Source: Rhynchobatus australiae
Lineage: Eukaryota
NCBI GenBank assembly: GCA_034780895.1
Contig: JAUZTB010000107.1
Location: 44,970,148-45,034,147, forward strand
Direction: 5' to 3'
DNA: 64,000 bases
Part shown: in pieces, positions 1,401 through 63,509 of the stretch
How the letters are laid out: each line of letters opens with the position of its first letter
How positions within the stretch are numbered: the first letter of the stretch is position 1
Translations under genes and position numbers: made by a program
The notes under the pieces: generated by a model
The model's database searches: none
The model's input: the letters and a program-made list of their open reading frames with translations, nothing else
What the model was told of the DNA's origin: nothing

Positions 1401-2944
1401 TGTCAGTTTGATAATGCAAGTTAAAAAGCAGAAATGGCAAGTTTAGGAACACAAGAACAGGTTTAGTTATTGATCTAAAGTGCACTGGGTGGAGTTAACT
1501 TTCATGTCTATCAGCAAGGTGCAGGGTCATCAAATATCTGGCATGGGCCAAGTTTACATTACACCACTGATAAAAAGATACTGNNNNNNNNNNNNNNNNN
1601 NNNNNNNNNNNNNNNNNNNNNNNNNNNNNNNNNNNNNNNNNNNNNNNNNNNNNNNNNNNNNNNNNNNNNNNNNNNNNNNNNNNNNNNNNNNNNNNNNNNN
1701 NNNNNNNNNNNNNNNNNNNNNNNNNNNNNNNNNNNNNNNNNNNNNNNNNNNNNNNNNNNNNNNNNNNNNNNNNNNNNNNNNNNNNNNNNNNNNNNNNNNN
1801 NNNNNNNNNNNNNNNNNNNNNNNNNNNNNNNNNNNNNNNNNNNNNNNNNNNNNNNNNNNNNNNNNNNNNNNNNNNNNNNNNNNNNNNNNNNNNNNNNNNN
1901 NNNNNNNNNNNNNNNNNNNNNNNNNNNNNTCTGAGTTGGCAAAAGGTAGAATTCTCTGCTACAAACCCTTTCTGAACCACAGAATTTAAGTTTTTTTTAA
2001 AATAACCATTATAAATCTATAGAAAGTGAAGGGGCAAAATTAAACATGGCTTGTAGTGCAAAATATCAACACAAACTTGAAGGGAAGCTGGCCTGTTTCT
2101 GTACTGTTTAAAAAATTTAGTGACACCCATTATCTAGGTTTGACATCCTTCAGAATAGACAGCTGTCGTAAAATACATTATCAGTGTGCATTTCTGTCAA
2201 TTGGAACTGTAGTTAAATTGTGGTCTCTCAACCTTGCAGGCTATGAGGATCTTTTAGTCTCCTCATTATCTACTGAAGGAACTGTAGTACTATCTTTTGA
2301 GCAAAACATGTGGGGCAAAAGATTTTAGATTGAAGGATAGGAGGCATTTGACTCACTTCCTGTTAAGTTAATTAGCCAATTCTGATTGAAGCAAAATCTT
2401 TATAAAGTAGCTGAATCGATATTCATTGCAGGCAGACAATAACAATTAAATGAATATTATTAATGCAACTTGACTGAGAAGGGAAGAGCATNNNNNNNNN
2501 NNNNNNNNNNNNNNNNNNNNNNNNNNNNNNNNNNNNNNNNNNNNNNNGTGGACTGTGCATGGATCAGATGATGGGGAAAAATGTCTTCTTTCACCCAACC
2601 GAAGCTTTCATTTTATTTTCCTGTTCACACTCAAGTTTAATGGGCAATAATGGGAAGCAATGTCTGCTACACTTCATTTTGTAAACACAAACAAGTGAGA
2701 CCATTTGACTCTTAATCACAACTGAATCAGAAGTCTACGAGTTTCAAGGAGGTGTTATTCGAGAATAACCTGACTTGAATTTTGGATTTACATTTCCTTA
2801 AACCTGGGCAACAGATTCATTGACAGATGAGATAAGTATCTAATAATCATCCAATAAATCCTAGACTTGTACAATTCAGAAACAGGCTTTGCATCTCACT
2901 TATCAGTCAAAATCTAATATCAACTCAACGTTATTATTTTTTCC

Positions 2945-3230
2945 AGGATGTGGATATCACCTGCAAGGCCAGCATTTGTTGACAATCACTAATTGCCCTT
3001 GAGAGGCTGGTGGTGATACACCATTTTCCAGAACTACTGTAGTCCTTGTGTTGTAAGTACACCCACAGTGCTGTTGGAGAGAAGTTCTGGGATTTAGACT
3101 AGGGGACTATTAAGGACCAGTGATATAATTCCAAGTGAGAACAATGTGTAACTTGCAAGGGAACCTATAGGTGGTAGTGCACCTACTTCCCTTGTCCTTC
3201 CTAGTGGTTGAGGTTAAAGTTTTGGGCCTG
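2945..3230 (-). mobile_element. LINE (CR1/L2-type) 3' fragment
   Basis: The motif aaggccagcattt...aattgcccttgag recurs reverse-complemented at ~48050-48100, and related sequence lies at ~8820 and ~32600. Confidence 0.5.
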
Positions 3231-3449
3231 GGTTTCTCTAGTAGCTCACCCCAGTTCTAACCTCTGCATCCACTCTGTGCCACTAGGGCTGTAACAATAC
3301 TGGTCAGTAACAATGAGCATAGAAAGGATCTCTCATTGACTTCCTATACCTGGTTAATGGACACAAGTTGGGCCTCCCAAGTTAGCACTGAAGGGCAGAG
3401 AAGTCAGATGAACATAGCAAAAATGAGGCATGTACTATTATCACTCTCA

Positions 3450-3830
3450 CCCCCCCAAATCATTAAGGTTTTGGATTCAAGCCGCACATCACTTGATCTT
3501 GGCCAGCATTACATTGTGGAACTCTGTAATGTCATTGTCAAATGTGCAATCTTTCAAATGACATTAAATTGAGCCCCAACATGGTCTCTCAGACTGATAC
3601 AGAAAACTCAAAGGCAGCACTTCAAGATTGTGCATTCTTGTCCAACTGCTAACCTTCAAATAGGACCAACTGGCCCAAGCTTAAAATCACTTCATACATG
3701 GTGTTTTTAAGACCATAGTGTGCACAATATGACTCCTGCATTTCTTACATTACAATAATATGTGTAAGTATTTCATTGATTGTAATAAAAGTTGGACTAA
3801 TGTTAGACTATCTAGTGACCATGAAAAGCA
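3450..3830 (+). mobile_element. Old Deu-domain SINE-like remnant (SacSINE/AmnSINE type)
   Basis: Degenerate resemblance to the recalled Deu domain and tail (cattgtc...tctttcaaatgacattaaattgagcccc; gcatttcttacattacaa). Related pieces lie at ~10730-10850 and ~31865-32030. Confidence 0.35.
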
Positions 3831-3921
3831 TGACATACTTCCCCTAACCCCAGACCATACAATGTGCTGGTGCATCAGGGTCTTGATCAATAGTTATACA
3901 ATAAGCTATTTCTATACTTAC

Positions 3922-5427
3922 CAGAAGCAAGTTGTTTTTTCAGCCTGGGTAGCAAGTGGGATGGGTCAATGAGGGTTAACTTTCCTAGACATTCAGCTAC
4001 CACATTCCGAGTTCCTTCTTCAATACACTCACAGTTTTTGAAGAGCAAGGCCCAAATGTCTTGAATGTAAGGTTTTAAGCTGTCTGGCGAGGAGGAACTA
4101 ATAACCTCTTTCAGGGAGTGCAGCAACAAGTACTGACGCTTGGGCTGACTGCTGATCTCCTTGAGTATGAAAGGAAGATAATCACTGAGGTTTCCCACAC
4201 TGATGTTCCCTAATGCATAGGAGGCAGCCGACTTTACTTCTTCACTAGGTGATGAAAATGCTTCAAGGATAACCACCTTGAGCTCCTTTTGTGAGCCCAG
4301 ATTCATGGTGCGGCCTATCTCACCTAAAGAAAGTAGAGCCAGCAAACGGACTGAGTCAGAGGATTTAGGATTCTTCACTTCCTGAACAAATTGGTTCACC
4401 ACTGAACTGGCATCCCTTGGACAAGCTGAAGTAAGCGCAGCTACACATTTTGCCACAGAGTAATAGGCTTGCTTGTGCAAAAGCACAGGACCACCTGATT
4501 GAGTTGATGAATAGATGGTTCCTGTCAACTGCTTGAGCAGCTCCATGTAGCCCATGTTGGGAGTCTTGGATATGACCAAAGCTTGGAAGAAGTCCAAAAT
4601 TGCATTCAGAGCCCCCCCTTGCAGCAGTGGTGAGCGAACCAGGTTGAACAGCTCAATCAATATGGACCCACCAATCTTGGAAACAGATGATGGGTAGACT
4701 TTGGCTAGAGACGTCAGGAAGGTGATGGCCATCTGAGAGACATGCATGTCACTCTCCCCAATGAGGGATGGAAGCTCCTTCAAGACTGACTCAATCATCA
4801 TTGGCTTTAGGCTGTCACTGTAATTCTTAATCAGGATATCCAGAGCAGCGAGGGTACTTAGTTTTAATGCACGCTGGTTTTTCCTTAGAAAGGAAGCCAG
4901 GATGGGAACAGCCTCACCGAGAATTGGGCGCAGATCAATTTTTAAAGGAGAACTTGCAATCAGGGTCAAGGTTTTGACTGTGGTCAGTCGTGTGATCTCA
5001 TTCTTCAGTCGTTCAAGGAAGATTTGCAATGTGGGATTCAGGTCAGCACCCAGATTGTCTCCCAGGTTACAGATGATTTGCCCCATACAGGCAATAGCTC
5101 TCTCCTTCACCTCCTGGTCAATATCAGCAGCTTTTAATCTCTTCAAAGTGCTACTAAACAAATCCTTCACATATGGCTTAGCATCAAATGAACAAGGTTT
5201 GCCCAGTGGACGGATCACCTCTATAAGTTGCTGAGTCACAAGCAAAGCCTCAGATGTTATTTTGTAGAAAGGGTCACTAATGCAGGCCACAGTTGGAGGC
5301 AACAAAGTCTTGACATGGGGATGAAAAACTTCTGGTGGATGATTGCAGAGGATAACATGGAAGAAGGTCAGTGCGTCAATCTTCATGTTTGAGGTACTTG
5401 ATTTGTCAGTAAGGGAGTAAATAATGC
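3922..5427 (-). CDS. CAND2: CAND2 coding exon 10 (large HEAT-repeat exon)
   Basis: 1506 nt open, ttttacag|GC...TG|gtaagt. Translates GIIYSLTDKSSTSNMKIDAL...AADIDQEVKERAI...LLPRLKKQLASG, an unmistakable CAND family sequence. Confidence 0.95.
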
Positions 5428-6560: not shown

Positions 6561-7761
6561 GTGCATCTCCTCAAGTCTCTACAAAATCCCAGCCTGTCCC
6601 AGGCCAATCTTAATCTCTTGACCGGCAGGCCCCAACAAACTTAAACACATTGCCAGGACAGAATAAAGAGCAATTGGTACACTCCTTCTCACAAAGCATA
6701 CTTTTCTCCCTCTCTCTCACCAAACACAACATTCCATCATAACTCTCTTCTCTTTCTTTTTCCTATTTCCTCTGGAATGAAAGAATCCAGAATAAGGAGT
6801 CATGACTTTAAGATTAGACTGGGCCATTCAGAATGTCCAAAAGCCTGACTACACAAAAACAGCACTGAAAATATAGAGCTGTACCCAGAACAAAAAGTGT
6901 TGAAGCTAGGCGTGGGGCACAATTGATAATTTCAAATTGCGAGTCTGAGTTTTCTTAGGCAAAGATACAAAGGATAAAGAACCAGGTCAAGATGGATGGA
7001 AGTGCACATGAGCCAGGGCTCAACTGAATGTAGAAACAGGCTAAAGAGCCTGAATGACCTGCTCCCAAATCCTATTCCTCAATGCACCCATATTGTACTG
7101 AAATAGAGATTGATCTCATGTAAAATCCTTTCCCTTCCCTGAAACTTACATCTCCCTTTGTCTTCACTTTCAAATCAACAGCCCAGTTCTGGCCTCAAAC
7201 TATTCCTAGTTGCCCTTTATATTCCTTGAATTCTTTACAACCTTTGAATAGAGTAATTGTATTTATTCTAGTGTCACTCCCTGGTTGGGAGACAAAACCA
7301 TTGCCGAGAGAGGTTTATTCAACACAACCCAAAAAGAGAACATCTCACTGGTTTTGTATCACACAGTAAAGTCATCCTATAAGTACACTCCAGTCTTTGA
7401 TACCAGGAGAATTGTTTTCAGCTCTGTGACAAGACTTACCCTGACAGGTTATTTTATGGCACTATTAAAAAACTAAAACAAAATAAAAAATTTATCTTTA
7501 AGAACAAGGCACAAATAAAATGCCATGTTCTTAAAATAAATACCTGGCAGCCATTTGGTTGGGATTGTGATCTGAGGCATTTAGATAAAAAATTTAAAAT
7601 GCTCAGATTAGTTCCTGTGCTCCTAGGGTGAGTGTTGTCTGTGATGGGAGTGGCCACAGGTCATACTTGAATGACTGACAAGGGAGGATGAATGAATATT
7701 CTGCTCTACACATCTGCTATATGATCTTTGTAAATCTTGCAGTATTTAGACAAAATTCCAA

Positions 7762-7840
7762 GAGTATAATTTAGTACCCGAGTAAAATTATAATTCCAAG
7801 AATACAATTTAGTTCCCGAGTCCCCAAGAATACAATTTAG
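7762..7840. repeat. Short imperfect tandem repeat, about 3 copies
   Basis: ccaagagtataatttag / ccaagaatacaatttag / ccaagaatacaatttag. Confidence 0.7.
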
Positions 7841-8243
7841 CCAATATCAATGAAAGGAGCAGCCTTGTCTCATTCAAAGCATAATTGTTTTAAAATTGTC
7901 ACCGAGAGGGATTATTTTTTTGAAGCTTTTCACCACCAAACGCAACGTAGAAACAAGAGAACCAGTCAGAGAGCCAATCCAACGTCGACTGCATGGGTCT
8001 GATGACATGCAACATTAATGATAAGTGACTGGCCTCTATTTGGAACTGCTAGAGAGCCAAGTACACAAGGTCAGTAAATCTGACTGTGAAAGAGGGGAGC
8101 AAGGAAAGATGCAGCAACCACCATTCTGTGTGTTAATGCCCCCCTGCAACAAATTTACAAAATGTTAAATATGGAGCTTCTCTTCAATTTATCTATTTTA
8201 GATAAGAACATTGCACACTGCCACTATCCACACTCATTCATAC

Positions 8244-8385
8244 CTGGTACCAAGGCTGGTATATGTTCTGACAAGCCTCCTGGTAGGACGCTAGCCAATT
8301 CCGTTAGAAGATTGAAACAGCCTTGTCGTGTCTTCATACTCTTCTCCTTAAGCTGCTTGTGTAAAGCTTTCACTATGCTAGGTAC
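8244..8385 (-). CDS. CAND2: CAND2 coding exon 9
   Basis: 142 nt, aag|GTA...CAG|gtatga. Translates [47 protein letters not shown](G). Confidence 0.95.
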
Positions 8386-8505
8386 CTTCAGGAGAAGGAA
8401 AGCAAAAAGGGGGCAAGGCAGATAGTACGGGAAAGGAAAGGCAGGGAAGGGGGCAAGGAAAGCAGAGGAGAGAGGAGAGGAAGGAAGGAGGAATGGAGGA
8501 GAGTT

Positions 8506-8668
8506 GAACAATGGGAAATGAGAGAAAAAGAACTCTTGAAAAGTTTTGTTCTCCTCTTCCTTCTCAGGCAAAGAGAAAACAACACTGACTGCGATCTTCT
8601 TCCTCCGGACCATCTGTGGGTTGGAAGTATAGCTCTCATCTGCCATCATGAATGTCTCCTCAGCTGAC
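8506..8668 (-). pseudogene. FNIP2: Ectopic FNIP2-like exon B (3'-truncated) inside CAND2 intron 8
   Basis: Acceptor ttattacaag|G with a CTAAC branch-like site ~36 nt upstream. Translates (W)[54 protein letters not shown], matching recalled FNIP1/2 (..[36 protein letters not shown]). Homology stops at FPLF. Confidence 0.85.
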
Positions 8669-9272
8669 CTTGTAATAAGTACACATTTAACAGAAACAAG
8701 GAAGTTAGTTGCAGAAACATGAATATGAAAATATTAACTTCTGCACCAAAAAGAGAAGGGATAGCCCAATTTTAATCAAAAAAAAAGGTTAGGAACTAAA
8801 CAGGCAAGATTTCCCTTTCCTAAATGTCTTCATAAGGTGGAGGTGAGCCAACTTCTTGAACCCATGTAATCAATACCGAGAAGGTAATCCCACACCTTCA
8901 AGATATTCAGTAATGCTTTTCTAGTGATCTTGAAGAAAGGGAACTTCCTTTATAATCATTGTTCGAGGTGATAGAGGTCATGGGTTTAGGAAGCATTATT
9001 GTGGATGGTGCAGTGACTGCATCACAACTGCACTCACCCAAGCAAGCAAATCACACTAGTTGTTTCTGATAATAACAATCACATTTATGTAGCACCTTTA
9101 ACATTATGAAATAACCATGGAGCTTTATACAAGTTATACACAGGCATGATATGCCATTATATCTCCATAAATTTACAAAGTACTTTGACAAGACACAGAG
9201 TTAACCATTTCTTCCTTCAGGGATTGTTTTAAGCAACACAAGAATGGTTACATTACAAATTTTTACACTTAC

Positions 9273-9392
9273 CATCTGGGAAGAATGCCGTTTTCAAGGC
9301 TGGTGGTCTGACTGCGCAGCCAGCGCCGCTGAAAACTACTGGCACAATTACTGGAAAAGGAAGAATTTGGAGAAGGGAATGGTGTAACCAAG
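9273..9392 (-). pseudogene. FNIP2: Ectopic FNIP2-like exon A (5' part lost in N gap) inside CAND2 intron 8
   Basis: Translates [39 protein letters not shown](W) and ends at a perfect TG|gtaagt donor. Phase 2 matches exon [15 protein letters not shown] is an FNIP1/2 signature. Confidence 0.85.
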
Positions 9393-10247
9393 NNNNNNNN
9401 NNNNNNNNNNNNNNNNNNNNNNNNNNNNNNNNNNNNNNNNNNNNNNNNNNNNNNNNNNNNNNNNNNNNNNNNNNNNNNNNNNNNNNNNNNNNTTTTGCAA
9501 TTGATTAATAACCTACTAATCTCTTGGTAGCTCATTCACAATCCACTGTCTGGTAACCACGTTCCTACCCAATACCTTATGGATGATATTCTTAACTTGC
9601 TCCTGCAGACATATGTATCCAATGCCCAACCTGTAACTGATTGTAAATGTATTCCATTACCAGGGTATCAATCTATATTACCAGTTCACTGCTTATGGCT
9701 ATTACACAGAATATATTAGCTCATTATGATTACCTGTTACCAAGCTTCCTGATCTAGCCTCAGATTCCAAAAATCCACTCATCTCACCTTGAATATGATC
9801 TTGAATGAGCATCCAAACCCCTTTAGACATAGAACTCCAAAAGACTCAAAGATGAATTTATTTACCCTCATCTCAACTCCGTATTGTTATCTAATTCTGA
9901 CATCACAACCCCTATTTCTCGGCTTTTTAAGTAGAGGAAGCAGCCTGTTGGCACCTACTTTGTAAATCCTGCTCAGAATCTGGTATTTTTCAGCAAGATC
10001 ACCTCTCAATCTTTTAAACTCCATTGAATATAGTTTTAACACTTCAAAAAAAAAAGTGACAGTATTCTATCACCTATGCCATTCACTGCCAGTCTGATAC
10101 TGGTTTGTGCCAAGGTGGTTGGCATTGGAAAGGGAAGAATCAGGTAACATTCTCACTACTCTCAAGTGTTCACAATGTGGATCTTGGCGAGGGCAGGCTA
10201 AGGTGCACGAGAAAAACTATAATGTGTACCTACAGAAAAAGACTCAC

Positions 10248-10540
10248 TTGGTTTTGAAGCATCACAAGGGGCATATCTCCCTGCTCCAGCACATCTGCAG
10301 TTTGCAACCAGCTCTGGACTGGTTTTGTCTGCTTCAGGAGAGACACATAGGCGTGAAATATATCAGCCTTCACATTCTCTTCCCGTTCCTTGAATCTACT
10401 GATCAGAGCTGGCGAGACCGTCTTATAAAACTCCTGCAGCATTTCATGCCTGGTGCTCACAATGGCATCCAAACATTTGGTAGAAGCTCGACGCACCTTC
10501 CAGCTCATATCATCATCATCCGTGTACTCCTCTTCACTGT
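10248..10540 (-). CDS. CAND2: CAND2 coding exon 8
   Basis: 293 nt, cag|AC...CAA|gtgagt. Translates (D)SEEEYTDDDDMSWKVRRASTKCLDAIVSTRHEML...MLQNQ. Confidence 0.95.
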
Positions 10541-11444
10541 CTGATTGGAGTATGAAATTAAAAAAAAATAGTAAATTCAGGTCTGACAAAGCCATCAAAT
10601 GCCTATCCACCATTCTTCTCAAGTCTGATTGCTTTAAAACATTTGTGGGGACTTTTAAGGCAAATTATATGAAGGCCAGCACAACAGTGTGAAAGGGAAG
10701 ATGATGCTTTTGCCTTTTACAGTAAGAAATCAGAATTCTCCCCACCATCCTGGCCAATATTCATTATTCAACCATCATTATTGAAACAGATTATCTGATT
10801 GTTTATCTAGTGCTGTTTACAGGATCTTGTGCCTGAATTGGCTGCCATGAATCAGGCGCTCTTAAAAAAAATGGCCATAATACTTTGTCAGTTATGTTTG
10901 CAAATAAAAATTACAGTACTAAAGAGCTCCAAACCAAATTAGTGAAAAATGCGAGGAATTTGTAATCGATGCGCCCAGACTATGNNNNNNNNNNNNNAAG
11001 GAACCCAATCCACTCACCCTAGTGCAGAAAATTGAGATGCAACTTGAAAGCAGAAATCTTACCTAGAATTTAACCAGCTAAAAGCAGCATAAACATAACC
11101 AGTCATACGCCTCACTTCATTTCCTTATTATTTCATTTTAGTTGTAGTTAGCGTGCAAGAAAAAAAATCAGCTATGATTCAGATGGAGCAGTCCGTGTGG
11201 GCCGAATAGCCTAATTTGTCTCCTAGACCTTTTGTCTTTAAAACAAAACAAAGCTTTTTTTTCCCCCCTCACACCAAGCATTAAGAACTGCTAGATTAAG
11301 TATATCATGCTAAAAGGCAAAGTCGGGCAGTCAAACATTCCCAGATCACACAGAGGGGAGACCAAGTATTCTTTAATTTAACTTATTAAGCAGTCCTCAC
11401 AATGCTACATTCAATCCCAGTCAACTTTCACAATCGAGAAACAG

Positions 11445-27890: not shown

Positions 27891-28455
27891 GAGAAATAGT
27901 TCATGGCTTTCATCACAGATCTTTATTGTCAGAGAGCAACAATGTACAGAGTGTGCAGAATGATAGACTGTTTCATTAATGATGAATACAAGGCTCATCC
28001 TTTTTTGTGCTTCACTAAACAAGTCGACAGAACAGCCTATCTGGCCCAAAGTACTATCACTCTTGAATGACGAAGCCAGGAACGGCCATATGCCCTTAAG
28101 GGTACAAACCTGTTTGGCATCACAGTAAACTCTGTTTTAACCAGCTACCACTGTTTCGTTGTGGTTTGAACCTTTAGCTGAATGGCCCCGTTTACTGTTT
28201 GGAAGTCAATGTTACCTAGACCCTTAATTTCATTGTAAATAAATCTGTCTTATAAAGTAGATATGCCTGCTTCCATAATGCTTTTAGGACATAATGTTGC
28301 AGAAAATATTCATAAAACACTCCAGAAATGTGGACTTTTTCATGTACAAGTTCACTCACATGTTGAACTATGCAAAATTACTGTTAAAACAATTCACGCT
28401 ATGGTTTTCGGCATTATGTATTTGCCACCTCACAGTTGTTATCAATGGACCTATA

Positions 28456-28981
28456 CAGTGGCATGCAAAAGTTTGGGCAGCACTGGTCAAAATTTCTGTT
28501 ACTGTGAATAGCTAAGCGAATAAAAGATGACCTGATTTCCAAAAGGCATAAAGTTAAAGATGNNNNNNNNNNNNNNNNNNNNNNNNNNNNNNNNNNNNNN
28601 NNNNNNNNNNNNNNNNNNNNNNNNNNNNNNNNNNNNNNNNNNNNNNNNNNNNNNNNNNNNNNTGCATCACCTGGCCTTTCCTAACGATGACTGTGAACAA
28701 GCCATAGCCCTAACAAGCTAATGAAGGTCTGAGACCTTGATAAAAGTTATCTGAGAACTCAAATCACTTGGGGTGCCCAAACTTTTGCATGGTGCTCCTT
28801 TCCTTTTTCCCCCCCCACTCTAAAATTGTACAAAACAAAAATTATACATTAATCTTGCTTAAAATGTGGAAAAGAATGTTTCATCTTTATGACTTTTGGA
28901 GATCAGTTCATCTTTTACTCACTCAACTATTCACAGTAACAGAAATTTTGCCCGGGGTGCCCAAACTTTTGCATGCCACTG
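28456..28981. mobile_element. Tc1/mariner IR/DR-type transposon, interior hidden by a 100-N gap
   Basis: TA|CAGTGGCATGCAAAAGTTTGGGCA...TGCCCAAACTTTTGCATGCCACTG|TA. Inverted similarity extends about 100 bp, and an inner direct repeat ggggtgcccaaacttttgcatg lies at ~28770-28791. Confidence 0.9.
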
Positions 28982-29848
28982 TACATGCCTCTCTCCAGAG
29001 TCTTAATTTTTTTACATCTTAACTCTTCTAATGAAATTGCAGTTGCCTATTTCAGTAAGGCATCTAGTGGTATGGGAAAAGGGACAAGATCAGCTCTGAT
29101 TGTAATGAACGTTGGAGCATGCTGAAAGGGCCAAATGGACCACTCCTGCTTCTCCTTTCTTCATCTCTATCTTATTAATAATAAAATGATTTCACCCTCA
29201 ACTACAAGGGCTATTTGTCCTCTTCCATTTTCTCTTTCTAGTAGATGTTAACTTGATTTAATTCCCCATCCTGAAACCATATCACAGTAAAGTTCAACAT
29301 GTGCTTACAATTCACTCAATTTATTCCTTCTACTCTATACTTATGTACAAGGAACACCCTTATTTGTGCCACATGTTCTGATCTGTCTTTCTGCTCTAGT
29401 CTTCTACTCACACTTTGCTTGTTTCTCTCCCTGGCTAATACAGCTGACATTCTTTAGTTTTCCTTTCAGCTGCAGCAGTGAAAGGACAGTTTCTGACAAT
29501 TAACCCACTCTCATTTGAGGAACTATTAATATGACCTTTACCATCTCCAGTCTCACCAGGAGGCTCTCCTATTTTATCACCCTAAACTGGAAGAGAATAA
29601 TAACCACCATCGTGCATCAGATTGGAACCAAATTGCCACTTGAAATAATATAATGAATGCACTGTGGATGGTTACATATAATGGGGTGGAAAACACACGA
29701 AATAAAGTAATTCCCTTGTGTGTAGTCAAACCAAACGCATCAACATCCAGAACAGCTTGGCGTAACATTTACCTAGTCACCTATGTCAGAGATTGACAGC
29801 AAAAGGTTACTGAGCAACATATGGATGGATTTTGTGACTGTTGCTTAC

Positions 29849-39977: not shown

Positions 39978-40244
39978 GGGATGTGTATCTGGGGCTCAGG
40001 TTGTGGGATGTGTACGTAGGGCTCGGGGTGCCGGGTGTGTACCTAGGGCTCAGGGGTGCGTACCCGGGGCTCAGGGGTGCAGGGTGTGTACCTGGGGCTC
40101 GGGGTGTGTACCCGGGGCTCAGGGGTGCAGGGTGTGTACCTGGTGCTCGGGGTGTGTACCCGGGGCTCAGGGGTGCAGGGTGTGTACCCGGGGCTCGGGT
40201 GTGTACCTGGGGTTCGAGGCTCAGAGGCTGTGTACCCGGGGCTC
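39978..40244. repeat. G-rich minisatellite (20/28-bp subunits forming a 48-bp higher-order unit)
   Basis: Repeated gggtgtgtacc(c/t)ggggctc(a/g)g. The ORF track shows 16-aa periodicity (RAPGTHPAPLSPGYTP x~3). Confidence 0.9.
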
Positions 40245-41799: not shown

Positions 41800-42400
41800 T
41801 TGGTGTTATAGAGTAATAAAGCAGAGAAACAAGCTCTTCAGCCAGTCTTGTTTGTGCTGGCCATCGTACTCATCCTACACGAATTCTGTTTTTCTTTTCA
41901 TCACCATCAACTCCCACATAATAGAGGCAATTTACAGCAGCTAATTAACCTACCAACCTATATGCCTTTGGGACATGGGAGGAAACTGGAGGACACGGGA
42001 GACCAACGTGGTTACAAAGAGCAAAAACAATCTGCTGAAGGAAGTCAACAGGTCGAGCAGCGTCTGTGGTGGTGGGGGAGGGATAGTTGACATTTCAGGT
42101 TGAGACCTTGCATCTGCACTGAGAGGGAGGATAGCCTCTTTATACTGACAACCTTCCCTCTCCACTCTCAGTCCTGATGCAGGGTTTCAATCTGAAACCT
42201 TGACATTTCCTTTCCCTCACACACGCTGTTCGACCAACTGAGTTCCTCCAGCAGATTGTTTTTTGCTCCAGATTACAGTATCTGCGGTCTCTTATGTGTG
42301 CAGTCACAGAGAGACTGTACAAACTCCACACAGACAGCAAATGGGGTCAGGATCAAACCCTGGTCCTTGGAGCTGTGAGTTAACAGTGCTAACCTCTATG
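41800..42400 (-). mobile_element. V-SINE interrupted by a Penelope-derived fold-back (~42015-42300)
   Basis: SINE V-domain (gggaggaaactggag) and head (gatcaaaccctggtcc) flank an inverted-repeat insert caatctgctgaaggaa...gagttcctccagcagattg. Confidence 0.7.
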
Positions 42401-47109: not shown

Positions 47110-47306
47110 ATGAGATTGCAGATGCTGGAATCTGGAGCAACAATCTGCTGGAAGAACTCAGCGGGTCGAACAGCATCTGTGGGAGGAAAGGAATTGTCAA
47201 CGTTTCAGGTCCTAGTGCAGGGTTTCAACCTGAGACGTTGACAGTTCATTTCCTCCCACAGATCCTATTCGACCCGCTGAGTTCTTCCAGCAGATTGTTT
47301 GTTGCT
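47110..47306. repeat. Penelope-derived fold-back (hairpin) element
   Basis: caatctgctggaagaactcagcgggtcgaa...gtcaacgtttcaggt pairs with acctgagacgttgac...ttcgacccgctgagttcttccagcagattg. Confidence 0.85.
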
Positions 47307-61305: not shown

Positions 61306-61540
61306 AAAAAAAACATGATGATGCTGGATGAATTCAGCAGGCCAGGCAGCATACATGGAGAAAAGCAAGTGGTCAATATTTCGGGTCAGGCCCCTTCTTC
61401 AGGACTGCAGCTCCTGAAGAAGGGTCCTAACCCAAAACGTTGTCTGCTGCCTGCTTTTCTCCACAGATGCTGCCTGGCCTGCTGAGTTCATCCAGCATCA
61501 TCGTGTTTTTCATCCAGATTCCAGCATCAGCAGTCCTTTC
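61306..61540. repeat. Near-perfect ~200-bp palindrome from Penelope terminal repeats with two hammerhead-like cores
   Basis: Centred on ctg|cag at 61407/61408. Arms atgatgctggatgaattcagcaggccaggcagcat and atgctgcctggcctgctgagttcatccagcatcat. Confidence 0.9.
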
Positions 61541-62230
61541 GCTTGTGATTGATATCTTTCCCAATTTCTCTGTGGTTATAAGAAACTGTTTTGGTACCCA
61601 CTCAGAGCTTCCCCACCCTCCTTCATTGTCACCTGGGAATTGTCATTGTCACCTCCTCCATTGTCACCCCTTCATTAAGCTTGCGCTGAACACTTTCCAG
61701 TTAAGTAACTATACCGCTGGATGTTTCATGAGATAATGCCAACACTGTACGTAAGTGCTGGGACTGGAAGAATATGGTTAGATTTGGTTCATTTTGAAGT
61801 CAGAAATTTGCTATGTAGGTATAATTGCACTGTGGTTGACTTGCTGGACTGGTAACCAGGCATCCAATATCTGAGGAATGTAATTCAAATAAGTAAATCT
61901 ATTATCTAGAAAAAAAAATTCTGTAATGATGACTGTTGAAACTACCTGATTGTCATAAAAACCTATGTGGTTTGTTAGTGTCCTTCAGGAAAGCAAATAA
62001 GTGATTCTTACCTGGTCTGGCTTATATGTAATTTAACAATTCCATCAAGTAACCAGGGTTACAGCTACCTGCAGAGCCTCCCTTTGCTGGGGAAGATCCT
62101 AAGCTTCCAACAAGAATGCTACTTTCCAGACCTGTATCCTTGTAATATACATAATGGGCTTTTGCATAAAACAGTTAATGTACAAATAAAATTGTTAATT
62201 TCAAACTTAAATGAACAAATCCTTGTTCAG

Positions 62231-62382
62231 CCATGAAGGTCCCGTGTGGCAGGTGGGCTGGGCTCATCCAATGTATGGAAACATCTTGGCATCTTGTTCC
62301 TACGATCGGAAGATCATCATCTGGAAAGAGGAGAATGGGACTTGGGACAAGATGTATGAATATACAGGCCATGATTCTTCCG
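62231..62382 (+). CDS. SEC13: SEC13 coding exon 4
   Basis: 152 nt, gttcag|C...CG|gtaaag. Translates [50 protein letters not shown]. Confidence 0.96.
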
Positions 62383-63509
62383 GTAAAGATTCTCTTTTGT
62401 TATTCACAGTTTAGGATTGTGGTATTCTTTTATAGCAGTGTTTTCTGGTTTTCTTTTTTCTGAGTTCATTAAATCCAGGTATCTGTCAAAGAGCAAGTTC
62501 TTTTGAGGTACAAATATCTATTCAGATAGATTTTTTTTATTTTTGAGCTGTCTTCAGTCAAAGATAAATTACTCAGATTTTCCACACACAGTCGCTCAAA
62601 CATTAAATACAAATTGGAAGTACTACTCGGTCATACATATTCCTTACTCTGGACATTGTAAGACTGCTGAGTAAATGACATCTTTTGATGATGATCCTGC
62701 AGCTCAGTGCCACTTACGTGCACTAAGCACATATCCCTCAATTCCCTTAATGTTTGGAACTTTGCAGTCTTGCACCACTTTCTTATCCAAGTAAGATTGA
62801 AACGTTGTGGTNNNNNNNNNNGGTCAGTGCTTCTGTTGTCCCCACATTTGCTTTCCATAGCAATCTAGGACATATCTGCACCAAAAGACATTGGCTTTAA
62901 TTGTCAGTTTATTTAGCACTCCTCTCTGTTTTTATCATATACAAAATCTACTTGTCCATCCTCTGTGACATTGCATGTGAATTTGTGATGAGGTTAAAAT
63001 ACTCATTCCATAACTTAGTTATGTATCTGTCTCCATTCTGATTTGCCCCTAATTAGAGCACATTAACTACCCTACTTTTTATAGATTACTAAAGTACTTT
63101 TGAAATTCCGACTTTCCCCATTCTCCTCTTGACCTTTTTTAAAATTTTCTCTTGGTTTTCCATGGTTTTCTGTGGAAATCTGGACTTGACGTTTGTCACA
63201 AATCTGTTTTGTTTATTCTATTTTTAATATTTTCTTTGTCATCATCCAGGCAGCTGTAGCTTTCGATACCTCATCTAAAGAGAACATGCTTGGTTTGCCT
63301 GCGTGTGTTCTCCACTTTGAAGACCTGTCATAGTTCATTTACTTTATTCTAGACCAGCTTCCACTTTTAAGTACATCTTTCATCCAGCCAGAAATAATTA
63401 CTTCCTACTCCTGCTGATGGCTAGGAACAGTATTAAGATTCTTTGTGGTACCTTANNNNNNNNACATTAAGGCAAAATTGGGTGGAATCTGAAATACATG
63501 TATCATAAA

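Follow-up and report, generated by a model that had tools for sequence, protein, structure and literature searches.

A FNIP2 gene piece placed in a CAND2 intron of Rhynchobatus australiae is almost certainly a chimera of short-read assembly

The window analysed here is the whole stretch of 64,000 nucleotides (G000:C107:44970148-45034147) and carries ten exons of a CAND gene, found in order from 29997 to 878. The two exons that border the intron of interest (10540-10248 and 8385-8243) are 95-96% identical to the cartilaginous-fish CAND1-like/CAND2 proteins P0122 and P0123 and 70-78% identical to the shark CAND1 protein P0217, and a second CAND locus was detected in the genome (G000:C42, 77%). 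Judged by these similarities, the host gene is a CAND2-type paralogue and not CAND1, a separate CAND locus being present elsewhere in the genome. For residues 1-21, the first CAND2 exon, no match turned up anywhere in the window, positions 30000-64000 included; this exon may be hidden in one of the N gaps. A reading of this DNA made from the sequence alone had located a foreign gene piece in CAND2 intron 8; the assignment to CAND2 stands, and the number 8 is correct provided that a single exon encodes residues 1-21. The features of this region, in window positions and in the direction of CAND2 transcription, are as follows:

10248-10540, minus strand: CAND2 exon ("exon 8"), residues ~335-432 of P0122
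9393-9492, no strand: 100-N scaffold gap at what is almost certainly the free end of a chimeric contig; true CAND2 intron letters are missing here
9273-9392, minus strand: FNIP2 exon A, its 3' 120 nt, stop-free, residues 236-275 of P0001
8669-9272, minus strand: FNIP2 intron, 604 nt, GT-AG, phase 2, with CTAAC at 8708
8513-8668, minus strand: FNIP2 exon B, its 5' part, start of FNIP_M (PF14637 positions 3-44)
8513-8533, minus strand: the join, almost certainly false, a 21-nt pyrimidine-rich word common to the FNIP2 exon and the CAND2 intron, and the overlap of the X1 contigs described below
8386-8533, minus strand: true 3' end of the CAND2 intron, a 148-nt tract of 86% pyrimidine with an AG end, found on the CAND2-side contigs of runs X1 and X9
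8243-8385, minus strand: CAND2 exon ("exon 9"), residues ~433-480 of P0122

Other features of the window should be mentioned. A SEC13 exon lies at 62211-62411 on the plus strand, opposite to CAND2 (E 8.4e-42 to a SEC13 chain). At 28454-28983, a 100-N gap is enclosed by inverted arms of 41-91 nt; this element starts with TACAGTG and ends with CACTGTA, and we take it to be of a non-autonomous Tc1/mariner type. Near-perfect hairpins at 47139-47299 (72 nt, 93%), 61309-61510 (59 nt, 92%) and 42023-42263 (46 nt, 85%) are head-to-head copies of a dispersed repeat family, and a GC-rich tandem repeat of 20/28-nt units at 39998-40244 lies in the kilobase where the GC content of the window peaks (61%). 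The window contains 23 runs of N, 9 of them of exactly 100 letters, and the assembly is fragmented and gap-rich. The results of a literature search on FNIP2 together with CAND2 listed no work on the linkage of the two genes.

The gene structure proposed for the piece was largely reproduced. On the minus strand, 9392-9273 (120 nt) and 8668-8506 (163 nt) are both free of stops, and between them lies the 604-nt intron, which starts with GTAAGT, ends with AG and is spliced in phase 2 to yield the same peptide as before; the CTAAC branch-like site starts at 8708, about 36 nt ahead of the acceptor, and the run of N that bounds one end of the piece is indeed present at 9393-9492. When compared with 5 of the 120 listed homologues, the 94 spliced residues were identical at 93 positions to P0001 (named FNIP2, from the sawfish Pristis pectinata), at 91 to P0002 (Amblyraja radiata) and at 82 to P0012 (Callorhinchus milii). 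Against the PDB, exon B scored higher with human FNIP2 chains (E 1.2e-18, 68.6 bits) than with FNIP1 (E 6.6e-16, 60.1 bits), and the highest ranks among its named homologues go to ray and shark proteins called FNIP2 or FNIP2-like. Together with an in-genome paralogue on C87 that is just 63% identical, these scores bear out the earlier preference for FNIP2 over FNIP1. The piece is ordinary FNIP2 sequence and sits almost certainly in the wrong place. A processed retrocopy is ruled out, as the sequence-only reading had argued, since the 604-nt GT-AG intron is retained; this intron is also present on the FNIP2 contigs of the four sequencing runs X1, X2, X3 and X9 introduced below. The database protein nearest to the piece is P0001, a FNIP2 isoform X2 of 634 aa; it is without the C-terminal Pfam domain PF14638 of its full-length relatives. 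In run X9, opposite-strand joints at 9126/9176 and 9127/9177 mark a 50-nt inversion (window 9127-9176) within the FNIP2 intron of that relative.

No second genomic copy of the piece was found by DNA, exon A, exon B or genome-wide protein searches. The DNA query 8300-9392 matched itself and one 67-nt stretch at 81% (2 of 2 candidates), exon B matched itself and the C87 paralogue at 63%, and exon A matched itself and one stop-containing sequence at E 0.27. The rest of FNIP2 lies on C64 (G000:C64:103125201-103196170), where tblastn against 100 kb of this contig revealed ordered exons matching P0002 except for residues 230-341. The genome-wide search, whose stricter first pass may miss weak matches, showed the same gap of residues 230-341 at C64. 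Runs of 1109 N (103168922-103170030) and 264 N separate the exon ending at residue 229 (103168779) from the exon starting at residue 342 (103178706), and the FNIP2 residues beyond the exon B part, up to about 342, are missing from the whole assembly. All the other C64 FNIP2 exons are open and 59-100% identical to P0002. Among 8 genome matches to Pfam FNIP_M, that of C64 starts at domain position 41 and that of C87 at position 2, and the window carries positions 3-44. Next to the two C64 gaps, neither a motif scan nor blastn turned up leftovers of the missing exons. The parental FNIP2 locus, which the earlier reading proposed to look for in the same assembly, was found on C64 without exactly these exons and with N in their place.

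Some irregularities of the FNIP genes themselves were also observed. In the FNIP1-like paralogue (G000:C87:22216132-22218485, L024), the exon for residues 230-269 is absent too, and an 831-N gap lies there (22216958-22217788). On C64, a 100-N gap flanked on both sides by a short diverged repeat interrupts the large FNIP2 exon (103186803-103187030, L018). The intron that follows holds a second copy of 78 nt of this exon, 96% identical (103190059-103190136, L019:59-136), which is either a small real duplication or another local assembly fault.

Both loci were then compared with public sequencing data. Words of window 8000-9392 are held by 22 public runs, none of the listed holders being an RNA run. 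Four of the 22 (X1, X2, X3 and X9, with four organism codes) were compared over window 7600-10600 and the native locus L026:1-7000; the other 18, including X18 (organism code as X1, share 0.08), were left out. The data are Logan contigs, for which Minia3 simplification is combined with SPAdes-like heuristics, all 31-mers are distinct and singleton words are dropped (PMC12424806), so that these contigs would not show a join that one read alone supports. On the window, 32 of 955 contig pieces were listed, and contigs were paired between the window and the native locus by equal length and depth.

Run X1 holds 0.98 of 144 sampled words and shows no differing letters in its 5 long pieces. Its FNIP2 contig also shares an edge with the assembly, as it begins at 9392, right where the gap starts. 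Because of this identity and this shared edge, X1 probably derives from the assembled sample or from one very close to it. It would then represent not an independent animal but the right control, namely the same DNA assembled with 31-letter words.

In the relatives, the piece belongs between the neighbouring FNIP2 exons. On a 3475-nt contig of X3 (depth 12.8), letters 1261-2146 follow the left flank of the native locus (L026:2043-2921) to the last base before the 1109-N gap, letters 2249-3110 follow window 9392-8513, and letters 3277-3475 follow the right flank (L026:4052-4254). A 5001-nt contig of X9 (depth 7.79) likewise carries the left flank (2752-3639), the piece (3742-4616) and the right flank (4786-5001). 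On a 1212-nt contig of X2 (depth 6.3), letters 371-1212 match window 8513-9357 and letters 1-224 match the right flank (L026:4031-4253), with 146 letters between them. Both flanks are thus reached in X3 and X9 and the right flank in X2. This placement rests on the relatives, i.e. on three of the four runs, the FNIP2 contig of X1 reaching neither C64 flank (a tail of 87 nt versus about 146 needed). According to the relatives' contigs, the true home of exon A is the 1109-N gap of the native gene (G000:C64:103168922-103170030), and the 264-N gap, considered as another home of the piece, was rejected as the same contigs put the piece in the 1109-N gap. The expected fill of this gap is 102+880+146 = 1128 nt versus 1109 N. 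The anchors around the gap (L026:2922-4030) span 1130 in both the assembly and X3, as against 1146 in X9; the exact agreement with X3 hints that the gaps were sized from a related reference genome.

The CAND2 side gave the complementary picture. A 2948-nt contig of X9 follows the window from 10518 to 9494, continues with 285 other letters and resumes from 8545 to 7600, so that the CAND2 intron of this relative has 285 letters where the window has 948, and no FNIP2 sequence there. The FNIP2 piece that the sequence-only reading placed in this intron is thus missing from the orthologous intron of X9, which is crossed without it. From X9, the length of this CAND2 intron is estimated at 1199 nt.

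The junction itself was examined in X1. Its 723-nt CAND2-side contig follows 7858-8533 and then continues with 47 unlike letters, and its 967-nt FNIP2 contig follows 9392-8513 and then continues with 87 unlike letters, the two tails probably being the true continuations of the loci. The two contigs overlap by exactly 21 nt with no differing letters, at a word (8513-8533) that has one occurrence in the assembly. Other X1 seams, with overlaps of 5 and 15 nt, lie at contig ends without unlike tails. Among the pieces listed (32 of 955), no contig with at least 31 letters on both sides of 8513-8533 was present in any of the four runs. The junction had previously been read as contiguous sequence at ~8505; instead, the real join is the 21-nt overlap at 8513-8533, which is left unjoined in the read-derived contigs. 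Similarly, bases 8506-8512, formerly taken for the last FNIP2 residues, sit on the CAND2-side contig of X1 and happen to preserve the FNIP2 residues P-L-F. As these residues are preserved and the X9 CAND2 contig matches as far as 8545, 12 nt beyond the shared word, the two loci may resemble each other over slightly more than 21 nt.

The shared word requires no special cause, as a Phe/Ser-rich codon run meets here a 148-nt tract of 86% pyrimidine. For some word of the 880-nt piece, 2 to 7 chance 21-nt matches are expected genome-wide under Markov models of orders 0-5 trained on 194 kb, the piece included. The minus-strand frame that stays open across the join (8224-8733, 169 codons), leading from exon B to the CAND2 exon by way of the pyrimidine tract, is likewise unsurprising because such a tract can hardly hold a stop.

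Taken together, these results indicate that the piece fused to the CAND2 intron at a shared 21-nt word is, with a confidence close to certainty, a chimeric contig of a short-read assembler and not DNA of the animal. The earlier reading had left two options, an assembly chimera or a DNA-level duplication or transduction. The first is favoured by the C64 gap and by the lack of a bridging contig among those listed, and the second is disfavoured by the lack of a donor copy and of support for the junction. It had also named two signs of misassembly, and both were found: the true FNIP2 locus has a gap at these exons, and no contig bridges the junction among the pieces listed for the four runs.

Such a chimera may have formed as follows. 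X1 contig depths are about 3-10 across the window and the native locus, and at such low depth both loci would have broken off within some tens of bases after the shared word. With words of about 21 nt, the two loci could then have met in the graph at this word, the true arms of 47 and 87 nt being trimmed as tips and the two long arms being condensed into a single contig. Scaffolding would have placed this contig by its longer CAND2 arm and padded its free end with 100 N, and a sized gap would have stayed in FNIP2. Two marks of a small-k chimera are present, i.e. a short exact shared word and true continuations that are both short dead ends, and the join is absent from the 31-mer-based contigs among the pieces listed. 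If the chimeric path had been solid in the Logan graph, it would be expected to displace the short arms, yet these arms remain. In SPAdes, k = 21 is used in the first iteration and edges are passed to later iterations; a chimera formed via a shared short word and two short dead ends is described (Fig. 5b), and many more false contigs are reported below k = 29 (PMC6736328). RaGOO, mentioned as context and not as evidence on this assembly, pads contigs with N and breaks only large chimeras (PMC6816165).

The false join could also stem from a later step, such as gap filling or the merging of contig ends, or from one chimeric library molecule. This too would be an artefact, and its weight lies inside that of the best explanation; we give it a small share, roughly that of one case in several. 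In its favour, the assembly also bridges the X1 seams with 5- and 15-nt overlaps and therefore used information that the Logan graph lacks. Against it, the exact 21-nt overlap with short true arms (47 and 87 nt) is the pattern of Fig. 5b (PMC6736328), and a random chimeric read would need no 21-nt shared word.

A biological origin would be a recent, intron-containing FNIP2 copy inserted into the CAND2 intron of one chromosome by microhomology-mediated repair, the two copies having been collapsed by the assembler and the donor emptied. The 21 nt of microhomology at the junction and the frame open from exon B into the CAND2 exon (169 codons, 8224-8733) are compatible with it, as is the depth of the X1 FNIP2 contig, which is 7.8 over the piece whereas its window neighbours are at 4.1-6.8. 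However, X1 depths nearby and at the native locus range over 2.6-10.2, so this per-contig depth of 7.8 seems ordinary, and the open frame is expected anyway in a tract of 86% pyrimidine. Moreover, X1 holds both unjoined continuations and no join-crossing contig among those listed, its FNIP2 contig starts at 9392, the edge of the assembly gap, as for a break of coverage, and neither sequence divergence nor a second copy was seen. A donor copy at the parent locus, as a duplication or transduction would leave, was not found on C64, where residues 230-341 are absent and N stand instead. A heterozygous microhomology-mediated insertion in one animal, which could give a CAND2-FNIP2 hybrid transcript, is very improbable. 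Least credible of all, to the point of being negligible, is a true cut and paste of the exons from FNIP2 to CAND2 that broke FNIP2 in this species, as, although the exons occur once, in the window, and not at the native locus, the latter shows a right-sized run of N and not a seamless deletion, its remaining exons are open and 59-100% identical to P0002, and in X1 the FNIP2 contig continues past 8513 and the CAND2 contig past 8533 with unlike sequence.

Read as an assembly chimera, the feature is not real and there is no new gene arrangement. It has no biological importance; its value is practical, as a case in which an interchromosomal misjoin can be followed clearly, in a fish assembly of low depth and with many gaps. 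An annotator would meet a FNIP2 gene without two conserved exons and could be led by the open frame at the join to predict a FNIP2-CAND2 fusion that is false. Where else in this genome a gene piece lies in a foreign intron and borders on a 100-N gap on one side, an artefact should be assumed as long as the piece has not been compared with contigs in the same way.

Segmental duplication and DNA-level transduction are known to leave an intron-containing gene piece in a foreign intron, with microhomology at the junction. The present case differs from them in that there is no second copy, a gap lies at the donor and the junction is without support from the contigs listed. Compared with the FNIP2 genes of rays and sharks (Pfam FNIP_M, PF14637), the piece corresponds exactly to what the native C64 gene lacks, and no biological difference is seen. 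The closest likeness is to the small-k chimera of SPAdes-type assembly (PMC6736328), in which a shared word likewise lies near two coverage ends, the short arms are lost and the long arms are condensed; the case described there concerns transcript ends in RNA-Seq, whereas here it is low-depth genomic DNA.
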